A stretch of 64,000 nucleotides of DNA, from IMG/VR virus record IMGVR_UViG_3300036770_002685. The stretch is one strand, 5' to 3'. Position 1 is the stretch's first letter. Each line of letters opens with the position of its first letter. Positions 8,477 through 51,073 of the stretch are shown in pieces. Under the pieces are notes generated by a model. The model searched no databases, had not been told where the DNA came from, and was given only the letters and a program-made list of their open reading frames with translations. The position numbers and the translations under genes are program-made. Origin of the DNA: an uncultured virus (IMG/VR IMGVR_UViG_3300036770_002685). Lineage: Duplodnaviria; Heunggongvirae; Uroviricota; Caudoviricetes.

Positions 8477-9565
8477 ATGAGTACATTGATGCAAGCTTCG
8501 AAACAATGGTCAACCCGTCCCGCTGAGGAGCGGTTTATTTCGCTCACGGAAATGCACGCCGCGCAAGCGGCCCAACGCGCTATTAGTCGCGCCGCCGTGG
8601 TTAGCTCGCGGGCGTTGCGGGCCGTTCCCACGGATGACAATTCCGGGATTTTGATTGAGGGCCCAAACGGCCACGGGTTTGCCCCGTCGCATTGGGCATT
8701 CGGCCAAGCGGCGGGCCTGATCGGCGCGCCCGCTGGATATCTTCGCTCGCTTCCCGCGCCCGTTGCGGCGGATTGTATTAACTGGGGCATGCAACATGAG
8801 CGGGACGCGCAAGACGTAGGCGTTTTATTGACGAAAAACGGCGAAGCGACAATTCGCGCCATGACGGGCCCGCGTTATGGGCGGGTTTGGAATGATGACG
8901 TTATCGCGGCGTTAATGGACCGCTTCGGGGACGGCGTAACGGGCGATTTTCGCGTCCCGGGCGTGTTCGGCCAAGCGGTACAGGTAGACCGTCAAAACAC
9001 CACGTTATATGCGGGTGACCGTGACATGTTCGTTTTTCTTGCGGATGAGATAAACCGCATTGAACTCCCGGGCCGCCGGGACGGGAAAACGGGCGCGCTC
9101 GCTCGCGGGTTTTTTGTCACGAATTCCGAAGTGGGCGGCGGCGCGCTCCGCGTGAAAACCTTTTTGTTCGATTATGTTTGCGCGAATCGGATTGTTTGGG
9201 GCGCTCATGAGCTCGAGGAAATAAGCTTGCGGCATACGGCGAGCGCTCCCGATCGGTTTATTGAGGAAGTAGCGCCCGCGTTGCTCGCTTATTCGCAAGC
9301 GAGCGAATCGAACACTCTCAGCGTGTTACAGGCCGCGCAGCGCGAGCGAATTCCCGATGTGGGCAAGTTTTTATCTGGCCGTTTCGGGCCGCGTATCGCC
9401 CAGCGAATCGAACACGCCCACGTTATTGATGAGGGCCGCCCGATTGAAACAATTTGGGACGCTGTAACGGGCGCGACCGCCTATGCGCGCTCGATTCAAT
9501 GGACCGCAGACCGCGTTGATTTCGAGACGCAAGCGGGCGATTTATTGGACCTTGTGACCGCCTAA
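8477..9565 (+). CDS. DUF932-like protein
   Basis: QWSTRPAEERF, GPRYGRVWN, GFFVTNSEVG and YVCANR motifs. Confidence 0.7.
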   Translation: MSTLMQASKQWSTRPAEERFISLTEMHAAQAAQRAISRAAVVSSRALRAVPTDDNSGILIEGPNGHGFAPSHWAFGQAAGLIGAPAGYLRSLPAPVAADCINWGMQHERDAQDVGVLLTKNGEATIRAMTGPRYGRVWNDDVIAALMDRFGDGVTGDFRVPGVFGQAVQVDRQNTTLYAGDRDMFVFLADEINRIELPGRRDGKTGALARGFFVTNSEVGGGALRVKTFLFDYVCANRIVWGAHELEEISLRHTASAPDRFIEEVAPALLAYSQASESNTLSVLQAAQRERIPDVGKFLSGRFGPRIAQRIEHAHVIDEGRPIETIWDAVTGATAYARSIQWTADRVDFETQAGDLLDLVTA

Positions 9566-10489: not shown

Positions 10490-10513
10490 AAATTTTTGCA
10501 AAATTCAAAACCT

Positions 10514-11980
10514 ATGACCTTATCAAACCAACAAGACGTTGAAGCCGAACGCGTGAAGCTTGAGCTTCGACTCTTGCAGCTTGAAACCCAAGAACGTGCC
10601 ACTTCAAGCTTTCTGGACTTCTGTCGCTACGTCTGGCCCGAGATGATTGTCGGTGAGCACCATAGGCGTATTGCAAAAGCCTTGGACCGTGTTGTGTCAG
10701 GCCAGTGCAAGCGTCTGATGATCGCGATGCCTCCCCGCCATGGCAAAAGCCAGATGGGCAGTTATCTGTTCCCCGCGTACCTGATGGGCAAGAAGCCTGA
10801 TTCGAAGCTCATTGTCGGTTCGCACACGGCGGAGTTAGCGCAGCGTTTTGGCCGGATGATCAGGAATCTTGTTGCGGAGGAGCGGTACAAAGAACTGTTC
10901 CCGGACATGGCGTTGTCGGCGGATTCCAAGGCAGCGGGCCGGTGGGACACGAACCAAGGCGGTGAAGCGTTCTTCATTGGTAAGGGCGGTGCGATGACGG
11001 GCCGTGGCGGTAACGTGGTGATTCTGGACGACATCTTGGACGAACAGGATGCTTTGTCGGACACCGCGATGGAGGGCACGTGGGAGTGGTACACGAGCGG
11101 CCCTCGTCAGCGTTTGCAGCCGGACGGCTCGATTATTATCATTAACACAAGATGGCGGACCGATGATCTGTCGGGCCGGTTATTGAAGCAGCAGGGTCAG
11201 TTGAAGGCGGATCAGTGGGAGGTCTTGGAGTTTCCGGCGATTTTGCCGAGTAACAAGCCTTTGTGGCCGGAGTATTGGAAGCTGGAGGAGTTGGAGAAGG
11301 TCAAGATGTCAATTGGCCTTCGCAAGTGGCAGGCGCAGTGGCAGCAGCAGCCGACTTCGGAAGAGGGGGCGATTTTAAAGCGGGAGTGGTGGCAGCGGTG
11401 GCCGCACAACTCGCCGCCCAAGTGTGAGTATTTGATCCAGAGTTACGACACGGCGTATTCGAAGAAGGAGACGGCGGACTTCTCGGTGATCACGACGTGG
11501 GGTGTTTTTGTCCCGGACGCGGACTCGGGGCCGAACATTATTTTGTTGGATGTTGTGAGAGGTCGGTGGGACTTTCCGGAATTAAAGCGGATTGCCAAGG
11601 AGCAGTACAGCTACTGGAATCCTGACAACGTGCTGATCGAGGCCAAGGCCACGGGCGTGACGTTGCAGCAGGAGTTGAGAAGAGTCGGGATACCTGTGAC
11701 GATGTACAACCCCGGTGGCAGGCGAGCCGGGCAGGATAAGATCAGTCGGGCGCATGCGGTGGCCCCGTTGTTCGAGAGCCGTATGGTCTGGGCCCCGGAG
11801 ACTGAGTGGGCGGAGGAGTTGATCGAGGAGTGTGCGGCGTTCCCTAATGGCGACAACGACGACATGGTCGATTCGACAACACAGGCCATGATGCGATTCC
11901 GTCAGGGCAATTTTGTGACCTTGCAGACGGATGACGTTGAGGAAGAGTCGAGCGATTCGCTTGTGTATGAGTATTATTAG
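10514..11980 (+). CDS. terL: Terminase large subunit
   Basis: Walker A MPPRHGKS, Walker B VILDD, nuclease motifs SYDTA and DDMVDS. Confidence 0.95.
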   Translation: MTLSNQQDVEAERVKLELRLLQLETQERATSSFLDFCRYVWPEMIVGEHHRRIAKALDRVVSGQCKRLMIAMPPRHGKSQMGSYLFPAYLMGKKPDSKLIVGSHTAELAQRFGRMIRNLVAEERYKELFPDMALSADSKAAGRWDTNQGGEAFFIGKGGAMTGRGGNVVILDDILDEQDALSDTAMEGTWEWYTSGPRQRLQPDGSIIIINTRWRTDDLSGRLLKQQGQLKADQWEVLEFPAILPSNKPLWPEYWKLEELEKVKMSIGLRKWQAQWQQQPTSEEGAILKREWWQRWPHNSPPKCEYLIQSYDTAYSKKETADFSVITTWGVFVPDADSGPNIILLDVVRGRWDFPELKRIAKEQYSYWNPDNVLIEAKATGVTLQQELRRVGIPVTMYNPGGRRAGQDKISRAHAVAPLFESRMVWAPETEWAEELIEECAAFPNGDNDDMVDSTTQAMMRFRQGNFVTLQTDDVEEESSDSLVYEYY

Positions 11981-12020: not shown

Positions 12021-15000
12021 ATGGACCGTGATCAGTTGAACGCGTTTATTGCGCGGGATGATGAGCCAGACATGTATGAGGGCTATGCCATGGGCGGTCC
12101 GGTGGGTGAGGACATGGTATCGGACATGCAGCCGGAAGTGAGTTATTTTGCAGAAGGTGGTGAGGTGGATCAGCCACCTGAGAAAGGTTTGTTTAGCCAG
12201 CAGCGTCCGGTGATGCCGCAGGGACGAGCCCCGTTGAAGAGGACGGCGGCGGAGATGTTGCAGCGGATGCCGCAGCAGCAATTAGGGACGATGCGTTTTT
12301 CGCCGTTGACGATGCCGGGGATTGTTGGGCGTCAGGTCCCGCGATTCGCGGACGGTGGTGAGGTGGACTCGGAGCAGCGCGGGTTGATGGCGCAACGGAT
12401 GGACATGGGCGCGCCAGCGGAGAATCTGTTTGGTGCGAACTTGGCGATGCCGTCACTGCCGCCTGCTGCGTCGTTTGAGACGAACGTGCCGACATTCACG
12501 CCAACCTATACACCGCCCACGGGCCCGGTGACAACACCCGGTACGGCGGGAGGTTTGAGTCAGTATCCGGGGTTGGGCGATGGCACGGACTTGCAGTATC
12601 AGCAGAGTTTGTATGAGCAGTTGTCGCCAGCGGCGTTAGCTGCGCCTGCGACGACGTTTACTACAGCAACGGGTTACACGCCCACGGCACAGACGGCGAC
12701 AACGCCGACACTTTTGTCGAGAGAGCAGGCGATGTTGCAGCAGCCGACCTTAGTGCGGTATGAGCCGGAGGCGAAGTTCGCGGGGTTGACCACGTACAAG
12801 GGTCCGTTGCAAACGAGTCCTTATACGGGCGGCACGACGGATGAAACGGGAGTCGTGAAGCCCTTACCGTTGACCACGGACCGTTATGCCTTGTTGGGCT
12901 TTAGGCCACCGACGAATGCGGTGGAAGGGGCGGGTCAGTATTGGTTCAATCCGGCGATGGGCTATGTGTATGCGCCTGCGGGGTATGAGCCGGAGGAGGG
13001 GTCGGGTTGGACGCGCGCTGATGAGCAGGGTGCGGCGCAGCCGGGCACCATTGACTGGACGGACACGAACTTCTTTGCCACGGGTAATTATGCATCGCCC
13101 ACGGAGCAGCCACGCGCGCAGGATTTGACGGACGTGTTCCGGTTGATCGCGGGCAGTGATGTGTCGCAAGCGGCAGCGAATCTGTTTAAGAATCCGAGTT
13201 ATGGCTGGGTGCCTGATCCGACGAACCCGGAGGGTGGCACGTTTAACATGACGCCGGAGGCGGTGAACAACATCCGATCGTCGGACCCGTTCAAGTCGGC
13301 AACCTCGCAGACGCTGAGGAGTTTGTATAGCGAGTTGGGGATGACGCCATCGGAGGAGGACGTCAACGCTTTGACGCAGGCGATTTCGTCGGGTCAGACG
13401 GACATCTTCCGTGTCGCCAATACCATCACTTCGCCCTTGCGCATGTCGGGACAGTTGCAATTAACGCCGGATCGCCCGACGTTGACGAGCATTTATGTCA
13501 ACAGTGGTTTGACGATTCCGGGTTTCTTGAACAAAGCACAGATTGACTCGGCGTATCAGCAGGCGTTGGGACGCAAAGCCGATAACGCGGGCTTGCTGTA
13601 CTACGCGTCTAACCCGACTGTGGCAGGGGCGTTTAAGAGCCCGGCGGACTTGGCAGCGGCGCTTGCAACGTCGCGTGAAGCGCAGGTTCAGGCGGCGTAC
13701 CAGCAGGCCTTTGGCCGTCGCGCGGATGCGGCGGGATTGGCGTACTACACGTCGGGTGGGGGCAAGAACGTTGATCTGGCTCCGGCGCTTGCGCAGTCAC
13801 GTGAAGCACAGGTGCGCCAAGCCTATAGCGACGTTTTGGGTCGCGCTGCAGACACAGCAGGTTTGCAGTACTACACCTCGGGCGCGGGGGCAAACGTTCC
13901 CATTGCACAGTTGAGGTCAGAGTTCACGGGCGGTGAGCGACCGCCTGCGGCCCGTGCGATGGGCTCACCCCCTGAGGGCGAGTATGCGGACCCGGTGATG
14001 CAGCTACTGGCGAGGCAGCGTATGCGACAAGGACCGGGGGCCATGGACCAAGGGTCAGCGAGGGACCGCCTAAAAAAGTTCTTGGGGGGTGAAGACCTCA
14101 CCCCCGTGCGTATGGCGGAGGGTGGCGAGGCAACGAAGGACACAGAGGCGACTGCGCGTGAGTTGTATGCCAAGATTGGGAGAACGGGCGACGCGGTTGA
14201 CGAAAAGGGGTTGAGATATTGGCGAAGCCGTATCCAAGGTAATCAGCAGTCGCCGGAGGACTTGCAGAAGGAGTTCATGGCGGCGGCAGACATTGCCGAT
14301 GATCCGTACTTTGAAGTTAATCGACTGTATCAGCGCGTTGGGCAAACGCCGGACACGGAAGGGTTTAACTACTGGGTAGATCGTGCAAAGCGAGAGAAAC
14401 TATCGCAGCAGAAGTTAGGCGAGCAGTTTATTGGTGGCCTGCCTGCGATCACCGCAGCACAACAGCGTCCGGGCTTTGGCTTAGGTGGTCAGTATGGCAC
14501 CTACAATGGTTTGCCGATGCTGTATGCGCCGGAGGTAGATCGGGTGTTGAGTGGGCGGCAGCGGGTTGAGGGCGATGTCGTCAATCTGGATAACGCGATC
14601 GGCTGGGACCCCGCGTCGATATCGGGTGAGATAGCGCGTGGTGCGGCGTCAACGGGCGTGTATCGCACACCGGTGGGCCCGGCGAATCGGCAGCAGTACG
14701 TGGGCGATCTCGCGGGCGTGGCAAGGCAGTATGGGCTAGACCCGGCACAGTACACGACGACTTCGACGAATCAATACGGTATGCAGTCAAGCGTGTTGAA
14801 CGAGGACGCGTTGTACAACGCGTTGGACGAGAAGTTGAAGGATTACTATGCGGTGCAGGGCTATGTCCCGCCCGCAGGCACAGAGAATTCTGCGTTTAAT
14901 CGTCAGGACATTGGGGGTGACCATGCGCGGGTGATGTATCAGCGTGTGGGAGATCGGTTAGTGCCGATCGAGGAGTCGTTGCAGTATTCGAACATGCAAC

Positions 15001-17549
15001 GTGCGCCGAAGTATAGTTGGACGGACTATCTTGCGCCTGCTGCGATTCTTGCAGCGCCGTTTGCGCTGCCGTATCTTGCGCCGTATTTTACGGCTGCTGG
15101 TGTGGCAAAGGGCGCGGCCATCGGTGCGGGCAAGAACCTAATTCAGGGCAAAGACCCACTCAAAGGTGGCGTGGAAGGTGCGCTAACGAGCTTCATACCG
15201 TCGCCGTTTGCTAAGGGTGGGTTGGTCAAACGCGCCGCAGGCTCCCCCGAGTACGGCGAGATCGCCATCGGCGAAGGCGGGATCACGAAGGACACCATGA
15301 GGGGCTTGAAGTCCAAGAAGGGTGTGGACACGTTCATGACGGATTCGGCGCGGATGCTGCGCAATGTCATGGGTGAGGGTGTATCGAATTTGGAGTCCGC
15401 AGTACGCGGTTCAGTAGCCGCGATCCCCGGATCAGTGGGGGACATCGAGTCGATCTTCCGCGAGAGCGACAAGACGAGGAAGTTCGCGACGACGGAAGAG
15501 GTCTTGCGGGATTACATGCCCAAGCGCATGACTACGCCGACGAAGGAAGGTAAGGGCTTTGAAGAGGTAGGCACTTACCTGCCGTTGCCTGTTCCAGCGG
15601 GCACGATCAGTAAGACGGCTAAAGGTGTGAAGACTGGCGCGCGCCGTGCCTTTGAAGAACTGGGTCCGGTAGCAGCAGGGATGGTTGAAAAGACCGCAGC
15701 AAGGACAGGCGCAGGCCCGATGTATGCGGTCAAGCCCAAGGGTGGGACGTTCTATCCCCCTGAGATGGGTTCTGGTTTGGATACCTACATAGACAGACTG
15801 GTCAAAGGACTATCCCAATCGGAGACTTTGGCAGGTCGGGATGCTAAATCCGTAGCGGACTTTATTCGAACCAAAGGACGTAAGTATTTTACTTCGACAT
15901 TTGGTACGGCGGACGATCCCTTGCGTCTAGCCGTGTCTGAAGGCCGTATGCCGCTGTACGGTTCGGATGACGAACGCTTTAGGGACTACTTGTTGGACGC
16001 TGCGCGCGCGGGCAACCCAAAGGCAGTTAAAGACCTTGAACGTGTTTATGATGAGGCCACACAGCTAGGAGTACAGCTTTATTCTCCAGCGGGCGCGACA
16101 GAGCCCACATACACTTTGGCAAATCGCATAAATGCAGCGCAACGTGCAAAATTGCTTGAGCAAGGGGTGCCAGAGGATTTAATAAACCCAAACTATCCAG
16201 CAGTGAACACTGCCCAGCAGATGGCTGAAACCACTTATGCGGAGGCTAGAAACAAGCTGGGGAAATTATTGAAGGGGATGGAGGAGCTCCCTCCGGAAGC
16301 AAGAGAAGCTTACATGCGCGGGACAGGCAAGGATTTTCAACCCCTGTTATACGCGGCCACCAAGGAAGAGCCTATCTACGACGTCACGCATACGCCGAGC
16401 ATGGACTTTTTAAACCCGCGTAATCTATCAGAAGCAATTGCATCGATTCCTGTAAGTGACCTTGAGCGCATGACGTTCCCTGAGGCAGTGGTCAAGGGAT
16501 CGCAAAACATGCGTATCAAGCGGGATCGTGGGTTGGTCTTGGAAAAGGCAAGGGACGGTAAAACGGTTCCCAAAGAAATTTATTTTGATGGAACCAAGCC
16601 CGTCTATGAGATAGACAAAAATCAGCAGTGGGTGCGTGTCCTGTCGCCTGACGCGGTGGAGTTAGAGGGAGCAGCGATGCGACATTCAATTGGTGGTTAC
16701 AAGACCAGTGATAGCTACAACTTAGGCGGCAGGGATGCGTTTAACTCGGGTCTTGCACGGGTCTTCTCGTTGCGTAACCAGAAGGGTATTCCACAGGTAA
16801 CGGTGGAAGCGAAGTTTACGGACAAAGACGGTTTGTTTATTAAAGAGATTCGATCTAAGTTTAATAGCGAGCCAACGCAAGAAGAGAAAAACGCCGTGTT
16901 CCAGTTGTTTGACACACTGGGCCCAGAAAAGATAGGCTCGACTAAGTACGTAACCAACCGTTCAGGGAATAGCCTGAAAGAAGAAGACCAAGTGACGGTT
17001 AACTGGGGCGACTTGTACAACCAGTACAAGAGCTACAAAGAAGGCACTCAGGGCTTTGCAGGTGGCGGCATCGTTCGAAAGGCAGCACAGGCCTTGACAA
17101 AGATGGGCGCGAAAGAGTCGCAGGTCGCTGGTAAAAAGTTGACTACGCTACAGGACATGCACACTTCGTTAGGCGACAGCGTCCGTGCTCGTGCTGCACA
17201 GATGAAGCAACAAATGGACGAGATGGAGTTTAAGTACAAGCCGGGTCAACGCGTCTTTACTGAGGATTCTGCAAAGAAGAATAAACCGCCTTACCTGATC
17301 AAGTCCAAGCGTCTGTACGGTGACATGATTGTGCGTGATCCTAAGACCTTGAAAGCCATTCGTGATCCGGAAACAGGTAAAGCGCAAAGAACGCCGTATG
17401 AGCCGGGTTACTTAATTCGTGAAGAAAACGGACCGGATGACTGGGCGGAGTATGTTCTGCCTGAGTCCGCGATCAAAGGTTCGGTAGACGAGTTTGCCAA
17501 GGGCGGCAGAGTGGACAAAAAAGCTCCCGGTAAGCGTAAATATATTTAA
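12021..17549 (+). CDS. Giant multidomain (polyvalent-type) protein with DUF4214-like repeats and a PcfJ-like domain
   Basis: 1842 aa; repeats of AYQxxxGRxADxAGLxYY; EGAAMRHSIGGY...VFSLR...PQVTVE; recurring FAxGG. Confidence 0.7.
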   Translation: MDRDQLNAFIARDDEPDMYEGYAMGGPVGEDMVSDMQPEVSYFAEGGEVDQPPEKGLFSQQRPVMPQGRAPLKRTAAEMLQRMPQQQLGTMRFSPLTMPGIVGRQVPRFADGGEVDSEQRGLMAQRMDMGAPAENLFGANLAMPSLPPAASFETNVPTFTPTYTPPTGPVTTPGTAGGLSQYPGLGDGTDLQYQQSLYEQLSPAALAAPATTFTTATGYTPTAQTATTPTLLSREQAMLQQPTLVRYEPEAKFAGLTTYKGPLQTSPYTGGTTDETGVVKPLPLTTDRYALLGFRPPTNAVEGAGQYWFNPAMGYVYAPAGYEPEEGSGWTRADEQGAAQPGTIDWTDTNFFATGNYASPTEQPRAQDLTDVFRLIAGSDVSQAAANLFKNPSYGWVPDPTNPEGGTFNMTPEAVNNIRSSDPFKSATSQTLRSLYSELGMTPSEEDVNALTQAISSGQTDIFRVANTITSPLRMSGQLQLTPDRPTLTSIYVNSGLTIPGFLNKAQIDSAYQQALGRKADNAGLLYYASNPTVAGAFKSPADLAAALATSREAQVQAAYQQAFGRRADAAGLAYYTSGGGKNVDLAPALAQSREAQVRQAYSDVLGRAADTAGLQYYTSGAGANVPIAQLRSEFTGGERPPAARAMGSPPEGEYADPVMQLLARQRMRQGPGAMDQGSARDRLKKFLGGEDLTPVRMAEGGEATKDTEATARELYAKIGRTGDAVDEKGLRYWRSRIQGNQQSPEDLQKEFMAAADIADDPYFEVNRLYQRVGQTPDTEGFNYWVDRAKREKLSQQKLGEQFIGGLPAITAAQQRPGFGLGGQYGTYNGLPMLYAPEVDRVLSGRQRVEGDVVNLDNAIGWDPASISGEIARGAASTGVYRTPVGPANRQQYVGDLAGVARQYGLDPAQYTTTSTNQYGMQSSVLNEDALYNALDEKLKDYYAVQGYVPPAGTENSAFNRQDIGGDHARVMYQRVGDRLVPIEESLQYSNMQRAPKYSWTDYLAPAAILAAPFALPYLAPYFTAAGVAKGAAIGAGKNLIQGKDPLKGGVEGALTSFIPSPFAKGGLVKRAAGSPEYGEIAIGEGGITKDTMRGLKSKKGVDTFMTDSARMLRNVMGEGVSNLESAVRGSVAAIPGSVGDIESIFRESDKTRKFATTEEVLRDYMPKRMTTPTKEGKGFEEVGTYLPLPVPAGTISKTAKGVKTGARRAFEELGPVAAGMVEKTAARTGAGPMYAVKPKGGTFYPPEMGSGLDTYIDRLVKGLSQSETLAGRDAKSVADFIRTKGRKYFTSTFGTADDPLRLAVSEGRMPLYGSDDERFRDYLLDAARAGNPKAVKDLERVYDEATQLGVQLYSPAGATEPTYTLANRINAAQRAKLLEQGVPEDLINPNYPAVNTAQQMAETTYAEARNKLGKLLKGMEELPPEAREAYMRGTGKDFQPLLYAATKEEPIYDVTHTPSMDFLNPRNLSEAIASIPVSDLERMTFPEAVVKGSQNMRIKRDRGLVLEKARDGKTVPKEIYFDGTKPVYEIDKNQQWVRVLSPDAVELEGAAMRHSIGGYKTSDSYNLGGRDAFNSGLARVFSLRNQKGIPQVTVEAKFTDKDGLFIKEIRSKFNSEPTQEEKNAVFQLFDTLGPEKIGSTKYVTNRSGNSLKEEDQVTVNWGDLYNQYKSYKEGTQGFAGGGIVRKAAQALTKMGAKESQVAGKKLTTLQDMHTSLGDSVRARAAQMKQQMDEMEFKYKPGQRVFTEDSAKKNKPPYLIKSKRLYGDMIVRDPKTLKAIRDPETGKAQRTPYEPGYLIREENGPDDWAEYVLPESAIKGSVDEFAKGGRVDKKAPGKRKYI

Positions 17550-17558
17550 GGAACAGTC

Positions 17559-19925
17559 ATGCCAATAGATAAGCTCGGGGAAAACGAAAAGCCCTTGTCC
17601 GTGGACATTGAAGCGGCAGGCATGCCTGAGATAGAGATCATCCTTGAAGAGGATGGTGGCGCTACGATTGAGATGGGCGAAGAGGAGTCCCGCGAAGTGG
17701 ACTTCTACAGCAACCTTGCTGAGGTGATTCCTGAGGAAGAGTTGTCTGTGATGGCGAAGGACTTGCAGGCCTTGTTCGAGGCCGACAAGTCTTCGCGCTC
17801 GGATTGGGAGACGATGTACTCCAAGGGCTTGGATTTACTGGGCTTGAAGCTTGAAGAGCGGACCAAGCCCTTCCGTGGCGCGGCAGGATCAGTGCATCCG
17901 ATGTTGACTGAGGCGATTGTGCAGTTCCAAGCACAGGCGATGAAGGAGTTGATGCCGTCGAGCGGCCCTGTTCGGACGCAAATTGTGGGTAAGGAGACCT
18001 TGGACAAGGCGCAGCAGGCCGCGCGTGTGCAAGATTTCATGAATTATCAGATCACAACGGTGATGGATGAGTACACACCGGAGTTTGATCAGGCACTTTT
18101 CTACCTTGGCTATGGTGGATCGGTGTTCAAGAAGGTGTATTACGACCGTCAGATCGGTCGGATGGTGTCAAAGCTGGTCTTGGCTGACGAGTTGTACATC
18201 CCGTACTACGGCTCAAGCGTCATGAGCCAGTGCACACGCATTACACACCGTGTTGCGATGCCTGCAAACGAGTTCAGAAAGCGTGTGATCGCGGGTGAAT
18301 ACCTCGATTTGAACGTTTCGCCGGACGCTTTTGACCCGACATCGAGCGATATTACGCAGGCGGTGGACAAACAGACGGGTTTGACGCCGTCGGAAGAGGC
18401 TGAAGAGGTCTTTTTGCTGGAAATGCACGTCGATTACGACGTTCCGGGCTTCGAGGACTTGGACGAAGACGGCGAACCGACGGGAATTAAGCTGCCATTT
18501 TTGGTGACGATCGACGAAGTGACCGGTCGCGTGATCGGTGTGCGTCGGAATTGGGAAGAAAACGACGAATACAAGAAGCGCATACCGACTTTTGTGCATT
18601 ACGTGCTGGTCGAGGGCTTGGGCGCGTACGGTTTAGGCTTTGTTCATCTGATTGGCGGCTTGTCGAAGAGCGCGACGATGGCGTTGCGACAGCTTTTGGA
18701 CGCGGGGACGCTCTCGAATTTGCCTGCGGGCTTCAAAGCCAAGGGCGCGAGGATCGCGGATCAGGATAATCCGATTCAGCCGGGCGAGTGGCGTGACATT
18801 GATGCGGGTGGCGCGGAGTTGACGTCGTCGTTATTGCCGCTGCCGTATAAGGAGCCGAGTCAGACGCTGTTTGCGTTGTTAGGTTTTGTGGTCGAAGCGG
18901 GCAAACGGCTGGCATCGATCGCCGATATGCAGGTAGGCGAAGGCAATCAGATGGCAGCGGTGGGCACGACCATCGCGTTGCTGGAGAAGGGATCGACGAT
19001 TATGTCGGCGATCCACAAGCGACTGCATTATTCGCAGAAGGTGGAGTTCCAGTTACTGGCAAAGGGCTTTGCGAAGTACCTGCCGGACGAATATCCGTAT
19101 GAGGTTCCCGGCGCATCGCGCAAGATCAAGAAAAAGGACTTCAATGAACTGGTTGCGGTTCTTCCTGTTGCGGACCCGAACATCTTTTCGGTCGCGCAGC
19201 GGATCACTTTGGCGCAAACGCAGCTTCAGTTGGCGCAGAGCGCCCCGATGATGCACAACATGTACGAGGCATACTACCGTGTGTACTCGGCCATGAACGT
19301 GAGAGACATTGACGGTATCTTGAGGCCGCAGAATACGCAGATGCCGAAGGACCCGGCGCAGGAAAACGCCGATGTGCTGGACCAGATGGAGCTAAAAGCC
19401 TTCTCTGGGCAGCAGCACGACGCGCATATCTTGTCGCATTTGATCATGGGGCTGTCTCCGATGTTGCAGGCGAACCCGCAGGCCGCGATGACCTTGCAAA
19501 AGCATATTTTGGATCATGTGCGCAGGAAGGCGGAGGAGATCGTCGAGGCGCAGTTGTTCTCTGAGTACGGCGCGGACCCTGACAAGATGGTGTCCCCGAT
19601 TCAGAAGGAGGGCATGATTGCGTTGGAAGTGGCAAAAGGCATGATGGAGTTGCGCCAGATTCAATCGCAGTTGATGGGTGAGGGACCTGATCCTGTGGTG
19701 CAGTTGAAAGAAGCCGAGATTCAGCAGCGCGCGCAGACGGATCAGGCGAGATTGCAGTTGGATGCGCAAAAACTGCAGGTAGAGCAGCAAAAGGCAGCGG
19801 AAGTGCAGCGCGCGAACATGGCACGGGTGGCGTCGCAGGAGAATATTGCGATGTTACGTGCGGATGTTGCGCGGGAGCGTTTGAACCAGATCAACCAACA
19901 GCAAGGAGCACGAAATGCCTCTTAA
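17559..19925 (+). CDS. Portal protein
   Basis: 788 aa in the head module; VHPMLTEA, GSVFKKVYYD and LLDAGTLSNLPAGFK; Gln-rich helical C-terminus. Confidence 0.88.
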   Translation: MPIDKLGENEKPLSVDIEAAGMPEIEIILEEDGGATIEMGEEESREVDFYSNLAEVIPEEELSVMAKDLQALFEADKSSRSDWETMYSKGLDLLGLKLEERTKPFRGAAGSVHPMLTEAIVQFQAQAMKELMPSSGPVRTQIVGKETLDKAQQAARVQDFMNYQITTVMDEYTPEFDQALFYLGYGGSVFKKVYYDRQIGRMVSKLVLADELYIPYYGSSVMSQCTRITHRVAMPANEFRKRVIAGEYLDLNVSPDAFDPTSSDITQAVDKQTGLTPSEEAEEVFLLEMHVDYDVPGFEDLDEDGEPTGIKLPFLVTIDEVTGRVIGVRRNWEENDEYKKRIPTFVHYVLVEGLGAYGLGFVHLIGGLSKSATMALRQLLDAGTLSNLPAGFKAKGARIADQDNPIQPGEWRDIDAGGAELTSSLLPLPYKEPSQTLFALLGFVVEAGKRLASIADMQVGEGNQMAAVGTTIALLEKGSTIMSAIHKRLHYSQKVEFQLLAKGFAKYLPDEYPYEVPGASRKIKKKDFNELVAVLPVADPNIFSVAQRITLAQTQLQLAQSAPMMHNMYEAYYRVYSAMNVRDIDGILRPQNTQMPKDPAQENADVLDQMELKAFSGQQHDAHILSHLIMGLSPMLQANPQAAMTLQKHILDHVRRKAEEIVEAQLFSEYGADPDKMVSPIQKEGMIALEVAKGMMELRQIQSQLMGEGPDPVVQLKEAEIQQRAQTDQARLQLDAQKLQVEQQKAAEVQRANMARVASQENIAMLRADVARERLNQINQQQGARNAS

Positions 19926-20175
19926 AAAAGGATCGAGTCAGAAGACAATTTCTGGCAATATTGGCGAGATGGTAACGAAATTCAAGAAAACTGGGTCGAT
20001 TGGCACCAGTAAGCCTAAGGGTAAGAAGGCGGCGGTCAAACAGGCGGTTGCGATTGCTTTGACGACGGCGGGTAAGTCGAAAAAGATGGCAAAAGGCGGG
20101 GCGATGAAGGGTGTTCAGGGTCCTGCGATGGTTGTGAAGAAGAAAGACGGCAATAACCCCGTCAAGATTTACTGA
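19915..20175 (+). CDS. Small basic protein
   Basis: MPLKKGSSQKTISGNI...KQAVAIAL; Lys-rich; contains MAKGG. Confidence 0.75.
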   Translation: MPLKKGSSQKTISGNIGEMVTKFKKTGSIGTSKPKGKKAAVKQAVAIALTTAGKSKKMAKGGAMKGVQGPAMVVKKKDGNNPVKIY

Positions 20176-20436: not shown

Positions 20437-20907
20437 ATGGAAGCGGTAGAAGAAAAGTTGACAGCGCTTGAGCGGAAATGGCTAGAGGAGGCCCAAAACA
20501 AGGGGCCGACCATTGATGACGTGTTCAACGACGAGGGCAAGCTGCAAGAGGACAAGCTTGACGGTTCGGTTCGTGATCATCTGCCGCATCCTACGGGGTG
20601 GCGGCTATCCATTCTCCCGTATCGCGGCGCTCGTGTGTCCAAGGGCGGCATTGCCTTAGCGGACGAGACGCAGAAGAAGACCCAGCTGGGCACAACCTGT
20701 GGGTATGTGCTGGAAGCAGGTCCTTTGGCCTACTGCGATCAGGAAAAGTTCCCAACAGGACCGTGGTGTCAGCCCGGTGACTGGATCATTTTTGGCCGGT
20801 ATGCGGGTTCGCGCATCCCGATCGACGGTGGGGAAATCCGTTTCATCAATGACGATGAAGTCTTAGGGATTGTGAGTGATCCTGAAGATATTTTGCATCT
20901 GACCTAA
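20437..20907 (+). CDS. groES: Co-chaperonin GroES
   Basis: PTGWRLSI...SKGGIAL...GDWIIFGRYAG...INDDEVLGIV. Confidence 0.9.
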   Translation: MEAVEEKLTALERKWLEEAQNKGPTIDDVFNDEGKLQEDKLDGSVRDHLPHPTGWRLSILPYRGARVSKGGIALADETQKKTQLGTTCGYVLEAGPLAYCDQEKFPTGPWCQPGDWIIFGRYAGSRIPIDGGEIRFINDDEVLGIVSDPEDILHLT

Positions 20908-21887: not shown

Positions 21888-22370
21888 ATGGACAAACTTG
21901 ACGTGCCTTCTTTAAATCGCAAGTCGCGTGAGGCTGATAGCCGCTCTGCAACTGCGCGCCGTAAACCGTGGGCCCCTCCTTCTAAATTGGATGCGCCTGC
22001 TGCGCCTCCGGGTTACAAGCATCGTTGGATCAGAGCAGAGGCAAACGGGTACGATGATCGTATCAACGTGGCTTCCCGCCTGCGCGAAGGGTATGAATTG
22101 GTTCGCTCCGATGAATATCCGGACTTTCTCGGTACTCCAATGGAAGGTTCTCGCCATGCTGGTGTTCTTGGCGTGGGTGGACTCTTGCTTGCTCGTATTC
22201 CTGAAGAGACGGTGGCAGAACGCAATGCGTATTACACCTCGCGCACCCGTGACCAATTGCAGGCTGTTGATAACGACTTGATGAAGGCGAATGCTCACGA
22301 CAGCATGCGCATCAACAAGCCGTCACGTCAGTCACGAACGGTCTTTGGTAGCCCGAAGGCTGATGAGTAA
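21888..22370 (+). CDS. Head-module hypothetical protein
   Basis: PPGYKHRWIR...REGYELV...VGGLLLARIPEE. Confidence 0.75.
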   Translation: MDKLDVPSLNRKSREADSRSATARRKPWAPPSKLDAPAAPPGYKHRWIRAEANGYDDRINVASRLREGYELVRSDEYPDFLGTPMEGSRHAGVLGVGGLLLARIPEETVAERNAYYTSRTRDQLQAVDNDLMKANAHDSMRINKPSRQSRTVFGSPKADE

Positions 22371-25669: not shown

Positions 25670-25867
25670 ATGAAAAAGTCTGTACCGAAGGGGATGCACA
25701 AAATGCCTGATGGTTCTTTGATGAAGAACTCGGATATGGCAGGTCGCGCGATGAAGAAAAAAGGCGCGGATGCAAAAGGTCGTGCGATGAAGAGCGGCAA
25801 AACGGGCTATGGCGGTGTCATCGCCATGGGTATGAAAAAGGGCGGTAAAGCTAAGAAAGGAATGTGA
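25670..25867 (+). CDS. Lys/Met/Gly-rich small protein
   Basis: HKMPDG and MKKGG motifs. Confidence 0.65.
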   Translation: MKKSVPKGMHKMPDGSLMKNSDMAGRAMKKKGADAKGRAMKSGKTGYGGVIAMGMKKGGKAKKGM

Positions 25868-25869
25868 TC

Positions 25870-26082
25870 ATGGCTGGACGTGGAATGGGTGCTGCTACTA
25901 AAGGTGGCGGCTGCGTGGAGAGCGGTCCTCGCAACAAGATGATGTCAAAAACCAGCAACAAAACTGGCCCTGTGATGATGAAAAACGGCGGTGCCGTTAA
26001 TCAGCACAAGAAGATGGCAATGGGCAAGAAGATGATGGGTGGCGGCATGGTCAAGGGCTATAAAAAAGGCGGTATGTGCTAA
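25870..26082 (+). CDS. Lys/Met/Gly-rich small protein
   Basis: MKNGGAV, MMGGGMV, YKKGG. Confidence 0.65.
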   Translation: MAGRGMGAATKGGGCVESGPRNKMMSKTSNKTGPVMMKNGGAVNQHKKMAMGKKMMGGGMVKGYKKGGMC

Positions 26083-30630: not shown

Positions 30631-33600
30631 ATGCCTATTGTCTCGCGTTTGGCTGCAATGACCTCGCGTGCGTGGGGTCAGTTTAAGGTTACCGCTGCGT
30701 CGTTAGCTGGTAATTATTTATATGTGTGGGGACAAAATAGCTCGGCTGGGAATTTAGGTATTGGTTTGATTTCGGGAAGCGCAGTTGCTCGTAGCTCACC
30801 TGTGGCGGTTGCTATAAACAAAACTTTTGTTGAGGTCGGAGCTAATAGTCATGTCGTAGCGGTTGATTCTTCTGGGCAGCTATGGGCATGGGGGCCAAAT
30901 AGCGTAGGTCAACTTGGGGATGGAACTACTACTGCAAAATCCTCTCCAGTTCAAATTGGAACGCTTACTGATTGGGATCAAATAGAGGTTGCTACACAAT
31001 CAGTTTTGGCAATTAAAACAGATAACAGTTTGTGGGCGTGGGGCGCAAACGGTAGCGGTAGATTAGGAGATGGAACCAGTATTAACAAATCCTCTCCAGT
31101 TCAGATTGGGACGCTTACTGATTGGAGTATTGTTGGGATGGCGTTGGGTAATGCGGCGGCTGTCAAAACAGATGGTACTTTATGGGTTTGGGGAGCAGCA
31201 TCAAGTGGCGCTCTTGGAAATGGAACAACTACTCCAAATGTATCATCTCCCATTCAAGTAGGAACACTAGCAACATGGAGCACAGCCTCTGCGGGGAATA
31301 GTTTTGCTCATGCTATTTCAAATACGGGGAATTTGTGGGGCTGGGGAATAAACACTAGTGGGCAACTCGGGGACGGTACAGCCACGAACAAATCCTCTCC
31401 AGTGCAGATTGGGGCGCTATCGGATTGGAGCGTCATTTCTGCTGGTTCTCTGTCTTGGTTGGCTATAAAAACAGATGGGACGCTTTGGTCTTGTGGATCA
31501 AATATTTATGGGCAGATTGGTGACGGCACAACAACAAACAGATCGTCGCCAGTGCAAATTGGCACTTTGAATACTTGGGTTGAAATTGACATCAATGCAG
31601 AATCTTGTTCTGCCAGAAGGTCAGATGGAACAGTTTGGGTTTGGGGGAGAAATGGGTCTGGTCAACTCGGTTTAAGTGATAGCGCAAACCGTAGTAGTCC
31701 TACTCAACTTGGGACTCGGTCTGATTATACAAAAATTTCAGTGGGAACAGCTTCTTCACTATTTGTAACAAGTGATAATTACAACTGGTCAGCATTTGTT
31801 AATACGGCTAGTGGGCAAATTGGCGCTTCTAGTAACAATACTCCTCTGCCCGTAGCAACACTAACAACAAAGTATGCCGATGTTCAGCGTACTGACAATC
31901 AAATGACCGCTGTTTCTACAGACGGTAAGTTATGGACTTGGGGATTGAATAATGCAGGTCAACTGGGTAATGGCACAACAAATAATGAGTCTTTGCCAAC
32001 TCAAGTTGGAACGCTAACGACTTGGGCGTCAACTACAAAGTTTGGTCAGTCTACACCCGGAGCAATTAAATCAGACGGTACGTTGTGGACATGGGGCTAC
32101 AACAATCAAGGAAACTTAGGCAATAGCACTTGGGGAACGGCAGACCAATATTTATACTTCCCAACCCCTTTTACAGACAGGCAATACTCCGATTTTAGTT
32201 ATGGCACTGCTGCCTACTTCATTTCGAATGGCGCTTTGTATGCGTGTGGCAACAATAACTATTACGAAGTTGGTGATGGCACAACCGTATGGAGAAGCTC
32301 ACCCGTTCAAATAGGCACTCAGACTGATTGGTCAAAGGTGTCTGCGGGTAGTCAATTTGGGCTTGCGATAAAAACGGATGGGACTTTGTGGTCATGGGGT
32401 ATTGAGGCTGGTTTGGTTCAAGGCCCAGAGGTTACAAACCTTGCAAACACTGTATCGTTCTCCTCTCCAGTTTTAATCCCTATTACTTTTGGAAGTTTGC
32501 CAGAAGGAGTTTCATACTTCAATGCGCTTGCCCTTTCCATAAACAACTACATGTTTGCTTGGGGTAGAAATTCAGAATACGAATGTGGTGACGGAACTCT
32601 TACAAAAGTCACTGCCCCAAAAATGATTGGTACATTAACATGGTCACAAACGTCTAGTGGAAACTACCATTCTCTCGCAATTGGGTCAGACAACACGTTA
32701 TGGGCTTGGGGATATAACAATTCCGGTCAACTAGGACTTAACGACACAGACTCAAGATCATTCCCTGTACAAGTTGGAACGCTTTCAGATTACTCAAAAA
32801 TAGCTGGCGGAAGAACGACAAGTTATTTTATTAGAAGTGGTCAGCTTTGGGCTACTGGAGCAAATAATCTTGGACAATTAGGAGATGGGACTACCACTAA
32901 TAGATCATCCCCCGTTCAAATTGGAACATTAAATAATTGGAGTCAAGTTTTTGCTACTGAAGACTGGACTACTTTTGCTATAAAAACCGATGGTACGTTA
33001 TGGGCTTGGGGTAGCAATAATTACGGGCAGATTGGAGATAACACTTCAACTAATAGATCATCTCCAGTTCAAATTGGAACCCTTACAACGTGGGCTACCG
33101 TTTCTAACGGTGGATATAGTGCGCTTGCAGTCAAAAATGATGGAACATTGTGGGCTTGGGGGTATAACGGTAGTGGTCAGCTAGGTGATGGCACTATAAC
33201 GAGTAAATCTTCACCTGTTCAAATTGGCACTCTGACAAATTGGTCAAGGGCGTACTTGGGAACAAGTCACGCGGTTGCAGTAAAAACAGATGGAACCATT
33301 TGGTCTTGGGGAGGTGGTAGTTATGGACAATTAGGAACTGGAAGCACAGTAGCACGGTCTTCGCCAGTTCAAATTGGAACGCTCACCAATTGGACGCAGG
33401 CTGTCGCATCTAACCTTAGAAGTTTTTTCCTAAATACTTCTGGTGAAGTATGGGGTTGTGGGGATAATGTTGTTAGTACCGCTGGTGGCCCATATCCCGG
33501 TCTTGGCCTTTCAGGTGGATTTTTTGCTCCTGTTCCACTTCAAGTTGGCACGGATAATACTTGGGCAGACATTTCGGCAGGTCAGCGGCACTCATTGCTT

Positions 33601-45815: not shown

Positions 45816-47858
45816 ATGGCTGAAGCGATGCAGGGAGGCGTTATGAGCCTGCCGCCGGAGATGGGCGGTATGGCGCAACCCCCTCAGAGTTACCTCACTC
45901 CTGAAGACGAAGCAACGCTAACGCAACTGCGTAATTCCGTCTCGCCCCAAGAGTTCAATCAAGAGATGTTCAACGCTGCGGAGCAGATGGACCCGCAGGC
46001 GATTGCACAACTGCGCAGCATGCTACAGGGCATGCGCTTGCCGCAGGAATTGATCGACTTGATGAAGGAGATGGTGAGTTCACTTTTGCAGGAACCTGCC
46101 AAGTATGCGGAAAATCGTCAGCAGTTGATCGCAGAGGGGGTGCCAGAAGACCTCTTGCCGCCAGAGTTTGACCCTAATTACCTGATGGCGCTGGACATGG
46201 CGCTGGATCAGGTATCAGAGCCTGTTATCCAAGGATTTGCAGCCGGTGGTTTTGTCCAAAATCCGATCTCTGCCGGGATTGCCAGCTTGGGCCGCAACGG
46301 CGACACGATGCTGGCGCACATCACGCCGCGCGAGGCGAGGATGCTTCAGCGCGCAGGTGGCGCAGGCACGATCAACCCGGTTACTGGATTGCCTGAGTTC
46401 TTTCTTGGCGGTCTTGCCAAAGCAATTGGCGGGGCATTTAGGTCAGTCGGCAAAGCGGTTTCAGGCGTTCTCACAGGCATCGGTAAAGCAGTTAAGAGCT
46501 TTGCCAGCAGTACTGTCGGTCGGATGGTGACATCGGTCGCGCTGGGCTTCTTCTTAGGCCCCGCAGCGGCGGGTCTACTAGGTGTTACGTCTGCCGCAGG
46601 CGTTGCGGCAATTAGCGGCTTTATTGGTGGTGCAGGCTCGACCTTACTTGCCGGTGGCAGCATTAAAGACGCCTTGAAGACGGGTGCGATTGGCGGTCTG
46701 ACCGCTGGTGCGTTTTCCGGTGTTAGCGGCGGCGCAGGGGCCTTCAAAGCGGGCACTTACACAGGTCCTACGACCATCTCGGAGTCTTGGAAAGGCTTCA
46801 CTGAGAAGTTGGGGACTAGACCGGCGGCGGACGCGGCAAAAGCGGTTGCTGGCGGGGTGGACGAAGCGGCAGCAGCCGCACCTCCTCCGCCTGCCATTGA
46901 ATCGGCTGTACAGAGCTTGGATGAACTGAAGCTTGACGCAATCAGTGGTAGGACTGCAGCGGTTCCTCAGCCGTCAATTCAAGTAACTTCACCAACGGGA
47001 CAAGCGGTTGCTGGTCCTGCCGTGGGGCCGTCTAAGTTTGACGTGATTTCACGCGGTTCGCCTCCGGCTGTTTCGCCTGCGCCTCCTGCACCTGCACCCG
47101 CACCAACTAATTACCTGATGAATCCGCCACTGGGGGCGGTCAAGCCTGATCCGCTCGTACAAAAGTTGACTGCCAATCTTCCGGCAGATACGGCTTCGAC
47201 CTCCGGCGGCGTGATGGACCTCTTGAAGCAGGGTGAGATACGGCAAGCGGCAACGAAGGCAGGCGAAGGTATTAAAGGGCTTTATGATGAGTATTTATCG
47301 CCCAGCAACATAGAAAAAGCAGGTGCGGAAAAGGCGATGACCGAGGCCACGAAAGCGGTCAACGCACTGCCTGCAGGCACTTCTGAAGCGGTCAAAGGCG
47401 CAGTCTTTAACAAGGTTTATGAATCGAATCTACCCGGCATGTTGGCGACCTACGGTCCGCTGGCAGCAGCCGGTATCGGCGCAACCTATTTGGCAGGGGG
47501 CTTTGATGTCAAACCCCCGCCAAAGCCCGAGATTCCAGTCAGCGGCACTGAACTGTACAAGCGCAATCCATACCTTTTGACACCGCAAATTCGCACGATC
47601 TCGGCCTCCACCGGCCAGCCTTATCGCATGGCGGCAGGGGGTATTGCGAGCTTGGCGCAGGGTTCAACGAAATACCCACGCAAGACCGGACCGATCGACG
47701 GCCCCGGCACAGGCACGTCGGATTCCATCCCGGCGATGCTCTCTGACGGCGAATTCGTGTTCACCGCCAAAGCAGTCCGGGGCATGGGCAAAGGCTCACG
47801 GCGCAAGGGCGCAAAACGGATGTATGCCTTAATGAAGGCACTGGAAAAGAGGGCCTAA
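45816..47858 (+). CDS. Probable internal virion/ejection protein
   Basis: Gly/Ala-rich hydrophobic segment; FAAGG, GRNGDTMLAH, GPGTGTSDSIPAMLSDGEFV. Confidence 0.7.
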   Translation: MAEAMQGGVMSLPPEMGGMAQPPQSYLTPEDEATLTQLRNSVSPQEFNQEMFNAAEQMDPQAIAQLRSMLQGMRLPQELIDLMKEMVSSLLQEPAKYAENRQQLIAEGVPEDLLPPEFDPNYLMALDMALDQVSEPVIQGFAAGGFVQNPISAGIASLGRNGDTMLAHITPREARMLQRAGGAGTINPVTGLPEFFLGGLAKAIGGAFRSVGKAVSGVLTGIGKAVKSFASSTVGRMVTSVALGFFLGPAAAGLLGVTSAAGVAAISGFIGGAGSTLLAGGSIKDALKTGAIGGLTAGAFSGVSGGAGAFKAGTYTGPTTISESWKGFTEKLGTRPAADAAKAVAGGVDEAAAAAPPPPAIESAVQSLDELKLDAISGRTAAVPQPSIQVTSPTGQAVAGPAVGPSKFDVISRGSPPAVSPAPPAPAPAPTNYLMNPPLGAVKPDPLVQKLTANLPADTASTSGGVMDLLKQGEIRQAATKAGEGIKGLYDEYLSPSNIEKAGAEKAMTEATKAVNALPAGTSEAVKGAVFNKVYESNLPGMLATYGPLAAAGIGATYLAGGFDVKPPPKPEIPVSGTELYKRNPYLLTPQIRTISASTGQPYRMAAGGIASLAQGSTKYPRKTGPIDGPGTGTSDSIPAMLSDGEFVFTAKAVRGMGKGSRRKGAKRMYALMKALEKRA

Positions 47859-49099: not shown

Positions 49100-51073
49100 A
49101 TGATGAAATCTAAAGTACTTGACAGGCCGATGTTCAAGAAGAAGGGGGCTCCTGTCCCGCCTGAGGAGGCCGACAACGTCGGCATCATGCAGGGCTTCAT
49201 GGACGCCATCAACGGCATGGAAGAGGATGACTACGAGGAAGAGGGCGATAGCGATATGGCAAAAATGCTGGATCGCCGTCCAGACTCGCCAGAAATCCTG
49301 ATGAACAATCTGCGGGGCGACATGCGCTCGGTAGACGCACGGGTCGAGGAACTGGCTGACTTAGTCGGCTACCGTGCCGCTGCCGAGACGCCAACCGAAG
49401 TCTTGGCACTGCTGCAGCCGGTGCTGGCACAGCAATCCCAGATGGCGGCACCCCCTCCGGGAGGCATGATGCCTGCCCCACCGATGCCGATGCCCGGCGC
49501 GCCGATGGCTGCACCTGCGGGCGGGGTTGCCGATTTAGCGGCCATGGCTCAAGGACCACAGACCACGCCACCAATGCCTGCCCCGGGACCGATGCCACCG
49601 GGCGGCGTTGCATCGTTGCCTGCTGCGGCTGAACAACAAGCGCCCATTGCAATGAAAGAGGGCGGGATTGTTCAACATTTTCAAGGAGGGTCCGGTGAGG
49701 AGGGCGTGACCCCCGTTGATCTAAGTGGGCAGCAAGCCTACTACCCTCCTGAGATCGTGGCAAAAGCGCAAGAAGATGTGATGAATCTGATGAGCGCGCA
49801 GCCTACGCCAACGCCGTCCATCGAAAGTGCGATGGCAGCGCGTCTGCCTACGTATGAGCGTCTTTTAGGCGTGGACAAGAACACTGTGCAATCGCAGATG
49901 TTGTTTGACATTGCACAAGGGGCGTTAAACGTTGCTGCCGGTGTTGACGCGGAAGGGCGCCCCATTAGAGGTGCAGTATCTCCTGTCGGGCGTATCGCGG
50001 CAGGTATGCGAAACGTGCCTGCCATGATTGGCGCACGTGCGGGTGAGCTTGCAAAAGCACAGCGTGAGATCAAGGCGCTTGCCCTACAAGCCGGTGAGAA
50101 GGACGTTGCATTGATCCGCGAGTACAACTTCAGGTTGATCGACTCGCAGCGCAAGCTGTCGGCAGACATCATCAAAGCAACTGCCAAGGGACAAGGTTTT
50201 GGCACTGGGGTAAAAGGCGCTGCGTGGAATTTTGTCACGCGGTTCGCGCCTGACTTTGCTGCGGGTAAGTTGACGCCAGAGAACGACCGTCGATTCTTGA
50301 GTTCGTATTCGATCATCTCGGAACCCACGTATTTCACTGATCCGTTTACCGGGAATGTTCAATCGCGTGTTCCGCCTATCCCCGACTTCGTAACGAATTC
50401 GATTCGAGCACGGAAGGATATTCCTGTTCCAACCACTGGCAAGAAGGCTCCTGCGCCAGAGGGAGGCACTGCAGCGCCCGTGGAACCCGGAGTACCCGGA
50501 GCGCCCGTAAGCGAAGCGCCTTCTGATGTAACGCCCGCCGTTAAACCCACTGCTGCGAAAACGCTGTGGCAATTAACGCCTGTGCTGACCGGACCTGTTG
50601 CTACGGTTAAGGACGTTATTTCAAGCGTTCCCGGACTGGGTGGCGTAGGCAAGGACGTAACGCAGGCACGTGCTCAATACATGGGCGAATTCCGTGAGCT
50701 TGTAAAGAGCTTGCAAAACAGCCCCGTTTTTGCACAACGAGAGCGTGAGGCGATTGAGACCGAATTAAACATTGAGCCTCGGTTCTTCGACGACCCAGAG
50801 AAGCTGCGTAATAAACTGATCGGTATTGACAAATACCTGACAGCACGTCTAACAGATGCGCGACTAAACGCAACAAACGAAAATCTGCCTGTCGAACAGC
50901 GAAAAGCGCATGCACAGATTGTGACCACGCTTAAAAACTTCTTACCAAAGCTGGGTATTCCGCAGAAGATTTATACGATCAAGGCGTTGCAGGACTTCAC
51001 GAGGAAAAATCCTCCGGGCACTCCCTTCTTGTGGAATGGTAGCGAAGTTCGCGTGACAAAAGGAGCGGAATAA
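49100..51073 (+). CDS. Probable internal virion protein
   Basis: VLDRPMF N-terminus; MKEGGIV; position in the ejection module. Confidence 0.65.
   Translation: MMKSKVLDRPMFKKKGAPVPPEEADNVGIMQGFMDAINGMEEDDYEEEGDSDMAKMLDRRPDSPEILMNNLRGDMRSVDARVEELADLVGYRAAAETPTEVLALLQPVLAQQSQMAAPPPGGMMPAPPMPMPGAPMAAPAGGVADLAAMAQGPQTTPPMPAPGPMPPGGVASLPAAAEQQAPIAMKEGGIVQHFQGGSGEEGVTPVDLSGQQAYYPPEIVAKAQEDVMNLMSAQPTPTPSIESAMAARLPTYERLLGVDKNTVQSQMLFDIAQGALNVAAGVDAEGRPIRGAVSPVGRIAAGMRNVPAMIGARAGELAKAQREIKALALQAGEKDVALIREYNFRLIDSQRKLSADIIKATAKGQGFGTGVKGAAWNFVTRFAPDFAAGKLTPENDRRFLSSYSIISEPTYFTDPFTGNVQSRVPPIPDFVTNSIRARKDIPVPTTGKKAPAPEGGTAAPVEPGVPGAPVSEAPSDVTPAVKPTAAKTLWQLTPVLTGPVATVKDVISSVPGLGGVGKDVTQARAQYMGEFRELVKSLQNSPVFAQREREAIETELNIEPRFFDDPEKLRNKLIGIDKYLTARLTDARLNATNENLPVEQRKAHAQIVTTLKNFLPKLGIPQKIYTIKALQDFTRKNPPGTPFLWNGSEVRVTKGAE

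Follow-up and report, generated by a model that had tools for sequence, protein, structure and literature searches.

A putative cargo locus and its repeated peptide

The region between the terminase and portal genes of an uncultured podophage raises the question of what a short peptide, repeated along one very large predicted protein, does there. The window (the whole 64,000-nucleotide stretch analysed, IMG/VR record IMGVR_UViG_3300036770_002685) contains a podophage genome resembling those of HTVC023P and DSL-LC04. Its major capsid protein (gene at 22990) is 86% identical to that of phage DSL-LC04 and 69% to that of Pelagibacter phage HTVC023P. The gene order is terL (10496), the 1842-aa ORF, portal (17559), GroES, a probable scaffold, capsid (22990), adaptors, and tail and ejection genes. 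DSL-LC04 has an 825-aa gene, annotated as PcfJ-like, at the position of the 1842-aa ORF, with three motifs in residues 1-60. The features of the locus are as follows.

10496..11980, + strand: terL, terminase large subunit (PHROGs)
12021..17549, + strand: predicted polyvalent cargo polyprotein, 1842 aa, between terL and portal
12084..12098, + strand: YAMGG, aa 22, in an acidic leader
12147..12161, + strand: FAEGG, aa 43
12345..12359, + strand: FADGG, aa 109
13953..13982, + strand: variant RAMGSPPEGE, aa 645
14112..14126, + strand: MAEGG, aa 698
15207..15260, + strand: tandem FAKGG (aa 1063) and RAAGSPEYGE (aa 1071, nt 15231), 8 aa apart
17055..17069, + strand: FAGGG, aa 1679
17493..17549, + strand: FAKGG, aa 1825, with a basic 17-aa tail
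17559..19925, + strand: portal, without the motif (PHROGs)

All seven [FMY]AxGG motifs claimed in the initial annotation lie in frame in ORF 12021-17549 at these positions, as do both RAxGS copies of its variant pair. Shuffling the protein 20,000 times gave a mean of 0.21 such motifs and a maximum of 4, against the seven present, and a six-frame scan of the window places 7 of 18 strict matches inside this one ORF. The variant class, with 37 sites among relatives, has the consensus [RK]AxGSPxxGE. All four codons are in use at the Ala, Gly, Gly and Val positions; such free synonymous choice identifies a protein motif and rules out an origin as a DNA repeat. The look-alike YNLGG (aa 1566) was rejected, as it lies within a conserved module and marks no border.

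Modules and their borders

The best 80 of 597 loci related through terL were kept for comparison, and 56 of the 80 reach the portal gene; in these 56 the terL-portal gap ranges from 1.1 to 7.6 kb. Cassette proteins of at least 300 aa number 73, or 63 after dereplication at 90% with the window included, and 60 of the 63 have a relaxed motif match. Cutting them at the motifs yields 181 modules of at least 70 aa in 91 clusters, 63 of which are singletons, and the order of the modules changes. The interval between terL and portal had been described as a variable cassette, and this comparison across relatives bears the description out. As in polyvalent proteins, one chain carries several exchangeable domains that vary among relatives, and its gene lies among the virion genes of a terminase-portal phage. 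Some standalone cassette ORFs are free of the motif (L053, L051, L058).

At 45% identity or more, 122 of 271 internal BLASTP alignment ends lie no further than 20 aa from a motif, and at 60% or more 85 of 161 do, compared with 12% for random positions. Masking the motifs left the enrichment unchanged (128/288 and 87/167). The proposed placement of motifs at module borders thus stands in part: at the level of sequence, ends are concentrated near motifs (45-53% versus 12%), and about half of them lie elsewhere. Homology, rather than structure, suggests that the motifs lie outside folded domains. Since all joints share one site, exchange, reordering or loss of modules would be possible there.

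Pfam matches in the 62 relatives comprise SLT (12), DUF6973 (10), ART-PolyVal (4, one below cut-off), DUF4214 (4), PcfJ (3, two below cut-off) and DUF7178 (2). The SLT lysozymes, found in 12 of the 62, are of the periplasmic type, and some longer homologues pair SLT and ART in one chain. In the 1842-aa protein DUF4214 is the sole Pfam domain match; zincin MPTase, MuF and LPD domains gave none. The main segments between its motifs are:

12348..13955, + strand: predicted fragment aa 110-645, 56.5 kDa, strain-variable
14115..15209, + strand: predicted fragment aa 699-1063, 39.6 kDa
15234..17057, + strand: module M0, aa 1072-1679, 66.8 kDa
17058..17495, + strand: module M6, aa 1680-1825, 16.3 kDa

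Fragment 110-645 consists of a P/T-rich stretch followed by three DUF4214-like helical repeats (aa 512-620), and none of the 63 cassette proteins matches fragment 699-1063 over its full length. M0 is the commonest cassette module; in two relatives its C-terminal part is weakly PcfJ-like, below cut-off, and it has no match in PDB, PHROGs or Atlas. M6 stands near the N-terminus in L004, in mid-protein in L010 and at the C-terminus in L001 and L002, bounded by motifs every time. Motifs cluster in the acidic leader and also occur as tandem sites, and in 24 of 60 proteins the last site is 12-18 aa from the end. This layout resembles that of protease-matured head proteins. A separate multi-gene, cargo-like cassette lies behind the portal gene of CRP-901 (L090, 35635-44347); it encodes a LysM protein, a nuclease and DUF2213, has neither the motif nor the GEFV domain described below, and constitutes a natural negative control.

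A mapped cut at the same motif in T5

The tape-measure protein pb2 of phage T5 is cut after R1127, as determined by mass spectrometry (Linares et al. 2023, PMC10038345). In the T5 record pb2 has 1219 aa, the cut falls in NSFVPR|AEGGMM and the C-terminal fragment is 92 aa long. The motif pattern occurs at only two places in the protein, positions 138 and 1127, and of its 54 Arg residues, seven of them in the last 250 aa, the one in RAEGG is the one cut. The match at aa 138, RALGG, is near the N-terminus (L660, 9122-12781). The passages of PMC10038345 on pb2 do not generalise the cut site.

The site belongs to a wider family. A search with a VGExGPELF-core pattern that did not include the motif found 120 loci and 107 segments, 87 of them non-redundant. 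The motif lies upstream in 82 of these 87 loci, 72 of them at offset -14, against a shuffled mean of 25, and its first residue is R in 36, F in 17 and K in 16. An HMM of the core segments matches T5 pb2 at 1122-1165 (7.8e-5). The exchange of R, K and F at the first residue in this family matches the FAxGG and RAxGS classes of the window, and X|A-x-G-G with R, K or F at X is present in the 1842-aa protein. The suggested link to tape-measure proteins is supported: they carry motif and core together, and pb2 is cut at the motif.

Like the window protein as read here, pb2 is an ejected protein, and VPR|AEGG shows the same motif and the same first-residue class as RAxGS/FAxGG. It is unlike it in being a siphophage tail protein with one mapped cut and a core adjoining in cis, whereas the window protein has nine core-less sites and is the product of a head-module gene of a podophage.

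The crAss001 cargo protein gp45

A second point of reference is gp45 of crAss001 (cargo protein C1; Pfam crAss_CARG1), a proven virion cargo; cryo-EM resolved two stretches of it, residues 214-245 within the tail and residues 425-552 located at the portal (Bayfield et al. 2023, PMC10172136). The authors modelled it as one uncut chain, and their account of gp45 reports no cleavage. Its motif sites are at 17, 206, 260, 329, 424, 559 and 825; the pattern matches nine times, with two matches in a Gly-rich membrane region probably due to chance, and homologues share the site layout (24 of 80 loci listed). Both resolved pieces lie between two motifs, and residue 425 is the Ala of N-A-F-G-G in the T5 register, so that T5 and crAss001 agree on X|A-x-G-G. 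The idea that the chain is cut after Gly-Gly, in the manner of ubiquitin-like processing, finds no support in either system: the T5 cut precedes Ala, and the gp45 model runs from 425 through the Gly-Gly at 427-428.

The crAss001 gel spectra (source data of PMC6235969, supplement file 8) were re-analysed against 24 crAss001 proteins. Peak lists were matched for bands 3 (part), 4-9 and 11-13 after exclusion of weak and trypsin peaks, and bands 1, 2 and 10 were read by eye. The bands correspond to gp50/gp47, gp49/gp44, portal, gp26/gp22, gp22/gp25, gp25, gp23, capsid, gp36 and gp29, and the high-mass identifications are portal, gp47, gp49 and gp50. Across 10 bands gp45 (90.8 kDa, 12 copies) never rose clearly above chance (at most 5 matches versus 3.2 expected, or 4 versus 1.8), and of six diagnostic masses five are absent and one coincides with a weak peak 0.11 off. 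No full-length gp45 is seen in the published gel spectra, which is soft evidence, being one of absence: gp46 escaped identification as well, band 10 was poor, and the excised bands included none near 19 or 29 kDa.

Both the 1842-aa protein and gp45 carry the motif at the N-terminus, in tandem, internally and close to the C-terminus, and both have pieces bounded by motifs. A membrane segment and a portal-bound core of its own set gp45 apart, and no sequence homology between the two was found. The crAss_CARG1 HMM (PF25725) detected nothing in G001, G003 or G005.

A predicted maturation site

These parallels make it probable that X|A-x-G-G is a maturation cut site before Ala that splits the chain into separate cargo. 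Of the roles first proposed for the motif, that of cleavage site is the likelier one, backed by the mapped cut of T5 pb2. The 1842-aa product would then be a polyvalent phage cargo protein synthesised as a polyprotein, with [FYMLRK]-A-x-G-[GS]-x-V as a virion-maturation site cleaved between its first residue and Ala. The chain would enter the prohead as one piece and then be cleaved to yield four cargo pieces (about 57, 40, 67 and 16 kDa), short peptides and an expendable acidic leader; the cargo pieces would be ejected into the host. The predicted pieces are 1-22, 23-43, 44-109, 110-645 (56.5 kDa), 646-698, 699-1063 (39.6 kDa), 1064-1071, 1072-1679 (66.8 kDa), 1680-1825 (16.3 kDa) and 1826-1842. 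We infer that the protein is packaged, cut and ejected in the window's phage, and that, once present in the virion, its modules act as effectors.

Motif-bearing genes elsewhere and a candidate enzyme

A motif PSSM trained on the relatives was applied to the 88 called genes of the window and matched seven: the cassette, 19915, 25670, 25864, 45816, 49100 and the UvrD gene at 60463, whose HGAKGGEA was judged a look-alike inside a domain. Outside the cassette the motif is thus carried by two ejection-region proteins and three small basic head-module proteins:

19915..20175, + strand: 86-aa basic protein, MAKGG
25670..26082, + strand: two small Lys/Met/Gly-rich proteins, 65 and 72 aa; MKKGG, MKNGG, YKKGG
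45816..47858, + strand: 680-aa ejection-region protein, two motif-led small domains; candidate reader or protease
49100..51073, + strand: 657-aa ejection-region protein, MKEGG at aa 185

The PSSM marks the same gene set in close relatives. In the 49100 protein an acidic, proline-rich leader precedes MKEGG, and the site is kept in relatives. YKKGGMC lies four residues from the C-terminus of a small basic protein, where a cut alone would make little sense. The motif is absent from the capsid, scaffold and portal proteins of the window and from the ejection-region proteins 47862 and 51073.

Because the sites of the 1842-aa protein have no core, cutting them needs an enzyme acting in trans. No prohead protease was recognised with Pfam (42 window proteins) or PHROGs (28). 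A conserved, Pfam-negative 160-aa gene between scaffold and capsid (21888-22370, phrog_36003) might conceivably encode the missing protease. The best candidate, by position and co-occurrence, is the acidic core of 45816. This protein has a first domain of FAAGG followed by 'GDTMLAHITP.E' (aa 141-197) and a second of MAAGG followed by 'SDSIPAMLSDGEFV' (aa 605-680), the latter also found in tape-measure proteins. Asp, His and Glu are conserved in the first domain (46191-46430, 'GDTMLAHITP.E...GLPEF'), which recurs within a 1441-aa cargo protein of G035 (L657:7863-12188) and directly after a GEFV core in L398.

In the PDB, the C-terminal domain of 45816 has matches in the tape-measure proteins of JBD30 and Douge, and it is found in 489 phage records and 10,574 cluster representatives at E<=0.001. 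Large tape-measure proteins have three to six copies in the order motif-core-helix-motif, with K or R variants at the first residue and S or T at the fifth. Among 92 non-redundant core copies the motif is upstream in 84, a count inflated by one search pattern that contained Gly-Gly, and downstream in 69. The GEFV domain is present in 7/7 window-like, 17/18 RW-like and 0/12 CRP-901-like records (28/44 overall). In 24 genomes at least two strong motifs accompany the domain in 14 of 15 positives and none or one is found in 9 of 9 negatives, a co-occurrence that spans two or three lineages and was scored with a PSSM trained on the window's clade. In Caulobacter phage RW the domain is present but no site reaches a score of 12, and HTVC010P has neither motif nor core.

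The core has no convincing Pfam family; in the Atlas the nearest Pfam cluster is crAss_CARG1 at 0.81, a lead only. AlphaFold2 gave no fold for it (pLDDT 61 from 33 rows for the C-terminal domain of 45816, 69 from 90 rows for a tape-measure copy), and Foldseek and VIA searches with the latter model, in which the core is unfolded, gave no match. In hhalign comparisons the window/lambda GEFV, T5 VGExGPE and crAss EEGEV cores are unlinked beyond the motif (probabilities below 9%; 4.9% for the 45816 and gp45 domains). Searches of the 1842-aa protein for a core behind its sites returned only motif-length matches, and the A1 HMM matches 45816 alone in the window; the core directly behind the cut in pb2 thus has no counterpart in the cassette protein, and that of 45816 is a different one. 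It is a tentative proposal that the small acidic 'D..A.LS.GEFV' core of 45816 is the enzyme and acts in trans on the core-less cassette sites.

Lambda gpH has the same arrangement, FATGG(733)-HRGEFV-YATGG(778), with a GEFV profile match of 7.4e-5 per genome. Its C-terminal region is cut off to give gpH*, with reported masses of ~78 and ~14 kDa, and cut site and catalyst were called unknown in 2025 (PMC12617516). The motif and GEFV core lie in the region that is removed. The reported masses fit the motif only roughly: a cut after F733 would give 79.8 and 12.5 kDa, a poorer fit than the Gly-rich stretch 706-720. Papers on TM4, Douge and DT57C and a crAss review contain no mapped site at the motif, and according to the DT57C paper the short C-terminal fragments that were resolved do not share a conserved motif.

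Cleavage, docking, hinge or host processing

The main rival, though an unlikely one, is that the motif is an uncut docking strand, binding the 45816 core, portal or scaffold and thereby loading or ordering cargo, with repeats adding avidity. The fixed spacing of motif and core in tape-measure proteins suggests such a structural strand, and the tandem copies, the sites adjoining the C-terminus of tiny basic proteins, the failure of Pfam and PHROGs to reveal a protease gene and the presence of the GEFV domain in motif-rich genomes would all suit it. Against it, the T5 site is cut, and the co-occurrence has the narrow lineage base and the RW exception noted above. Proven or likely cargo also does without the motif (gp46, gp49 and gp50 of crAss001, where gp47 has one weak match, and 47862 and 51073 of the window), which equally weakens the earlier notion of a general loading tag. 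Docking followed by cutting is compatible with the cleavage reading.

Less probable still is a mechanical role, in which the motif provides a flexible hinge, or a point of unfolding, for transit through portal and tail; recombination at homologous joints would maintain it, and the T5 cut would fall there only because the Arg is exposed. Gly-Gly does lie within low-complexity linkers and breakpoints do cluster at motifs, and the JBD30 authors, who found no peptidase motif in the corresponding region, proposed an Arg-C site plus a 'hook' (PMC11445458). Flexibility, however, has no need of a conserved aromatic/Arg, Ala and Val pattern; the fully synonymous codons leave only short DNA identity between sites; and the choice of RAEGG among the many Arg residues of pb2 speaks against an arbitrary exposed one. 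Cutting after ejection by a host protease, which would free modules in periplasm and cytoplasm, is the least probable reading. Post-injection processing has been proposed for some polyvalent proteins (Iyer et al., PMC5512222), a title cited in PMC10038345 reports host involvement in T5 tail-protein cleavage, and no phage protease was recognised; yet assembled particles already contain T5 pb2 and lambda gpH in cut form, and the occurrence of the motif in phages of Proteobacteria, Bacteroidota and Actinomycetota argues against one host enzyme. Maturation cutting before Ala is thus the preferred reading.

Relation to known systems

Polyvalent cargo and protease maturation are both known kinds. 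In T4 (gp21 protease, capsid-targeting sequence) and in SPN3US/phiKZ, head cargo is matured by a prohead protease at sites that end in Glu and also occur in capsid and scaffold. These systems resemble the window in their short repeated sites, the removal of leader and tail peptides and the ejection of cargo. In the window, by contrast, the site is missing from capsid, scaffold and portal, and the Pfam and PHROGs scans revealed no protease of this kind. The cassette resembles the polyvalent proteins of Iyer et al. (2017, PMC5512222) in being a large mosaic in the head-gene context of a terminase-portal phage, in the ART-PolyVal and SLT modules of the window's relatives and in the processing proposed. 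It departs from them in having no MPTase, MuF or LPD match, and the repeated junction peptide is not among the features described in the sections of that paper on such proteins. A literature search, with subscription journals mostly outside it, turned up no account of this motif, nor any mention that it coincides with the T5 cut.

A broader and rather speculative possibility is that X|A-x-G-G is one maturation code across ejected proteins of siphophages (T5, lambda, JBD30, Douge), crAss-like phages and HTVC023P-type podophages. The cutter might be an as yet undescribed miniature acidic protease, namely the 50-residue core behind the motif; tape-measure proteins would contain it in cis, polyvalent cargo would be cut in trans by the copy in 45816, and each motif-flanked module might be a separately delivered effector. 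If maturation cutting is correct, an unexplained repeat becomes a concrete, positioned prediction. The lambda gpH cleavage site would be predicted at the motif, and crAss001 gp45 would consist of separate pieces rather than one chain threaded 420 A through the portal. The reshuffling of injected modules in very common aquatic podophages would be explained, and the domain borders of many unannotated cargo proteins could be read from sequence.

Other genes of the window

Several further genes were noted. Ahead of terL, a GC-rich (60%) stretch contains a DUF932-like gene (8477-9565), and an HNH-like gene comes next at 9920. The phage-encoded GroES (20437-20907) in the interval between portal and scaffold is kept across the clade, and crAss001 has one too (gp15). 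The tail region encodes a 1464-aa RCC1-repeat protein (30631-35025), probably a receptor-binding or decoration protein, and the late region (36437-40034) carries methyltransferase, PfkB kinase and NAD-dependent epimerase genes that suggest sugar-modification functions.
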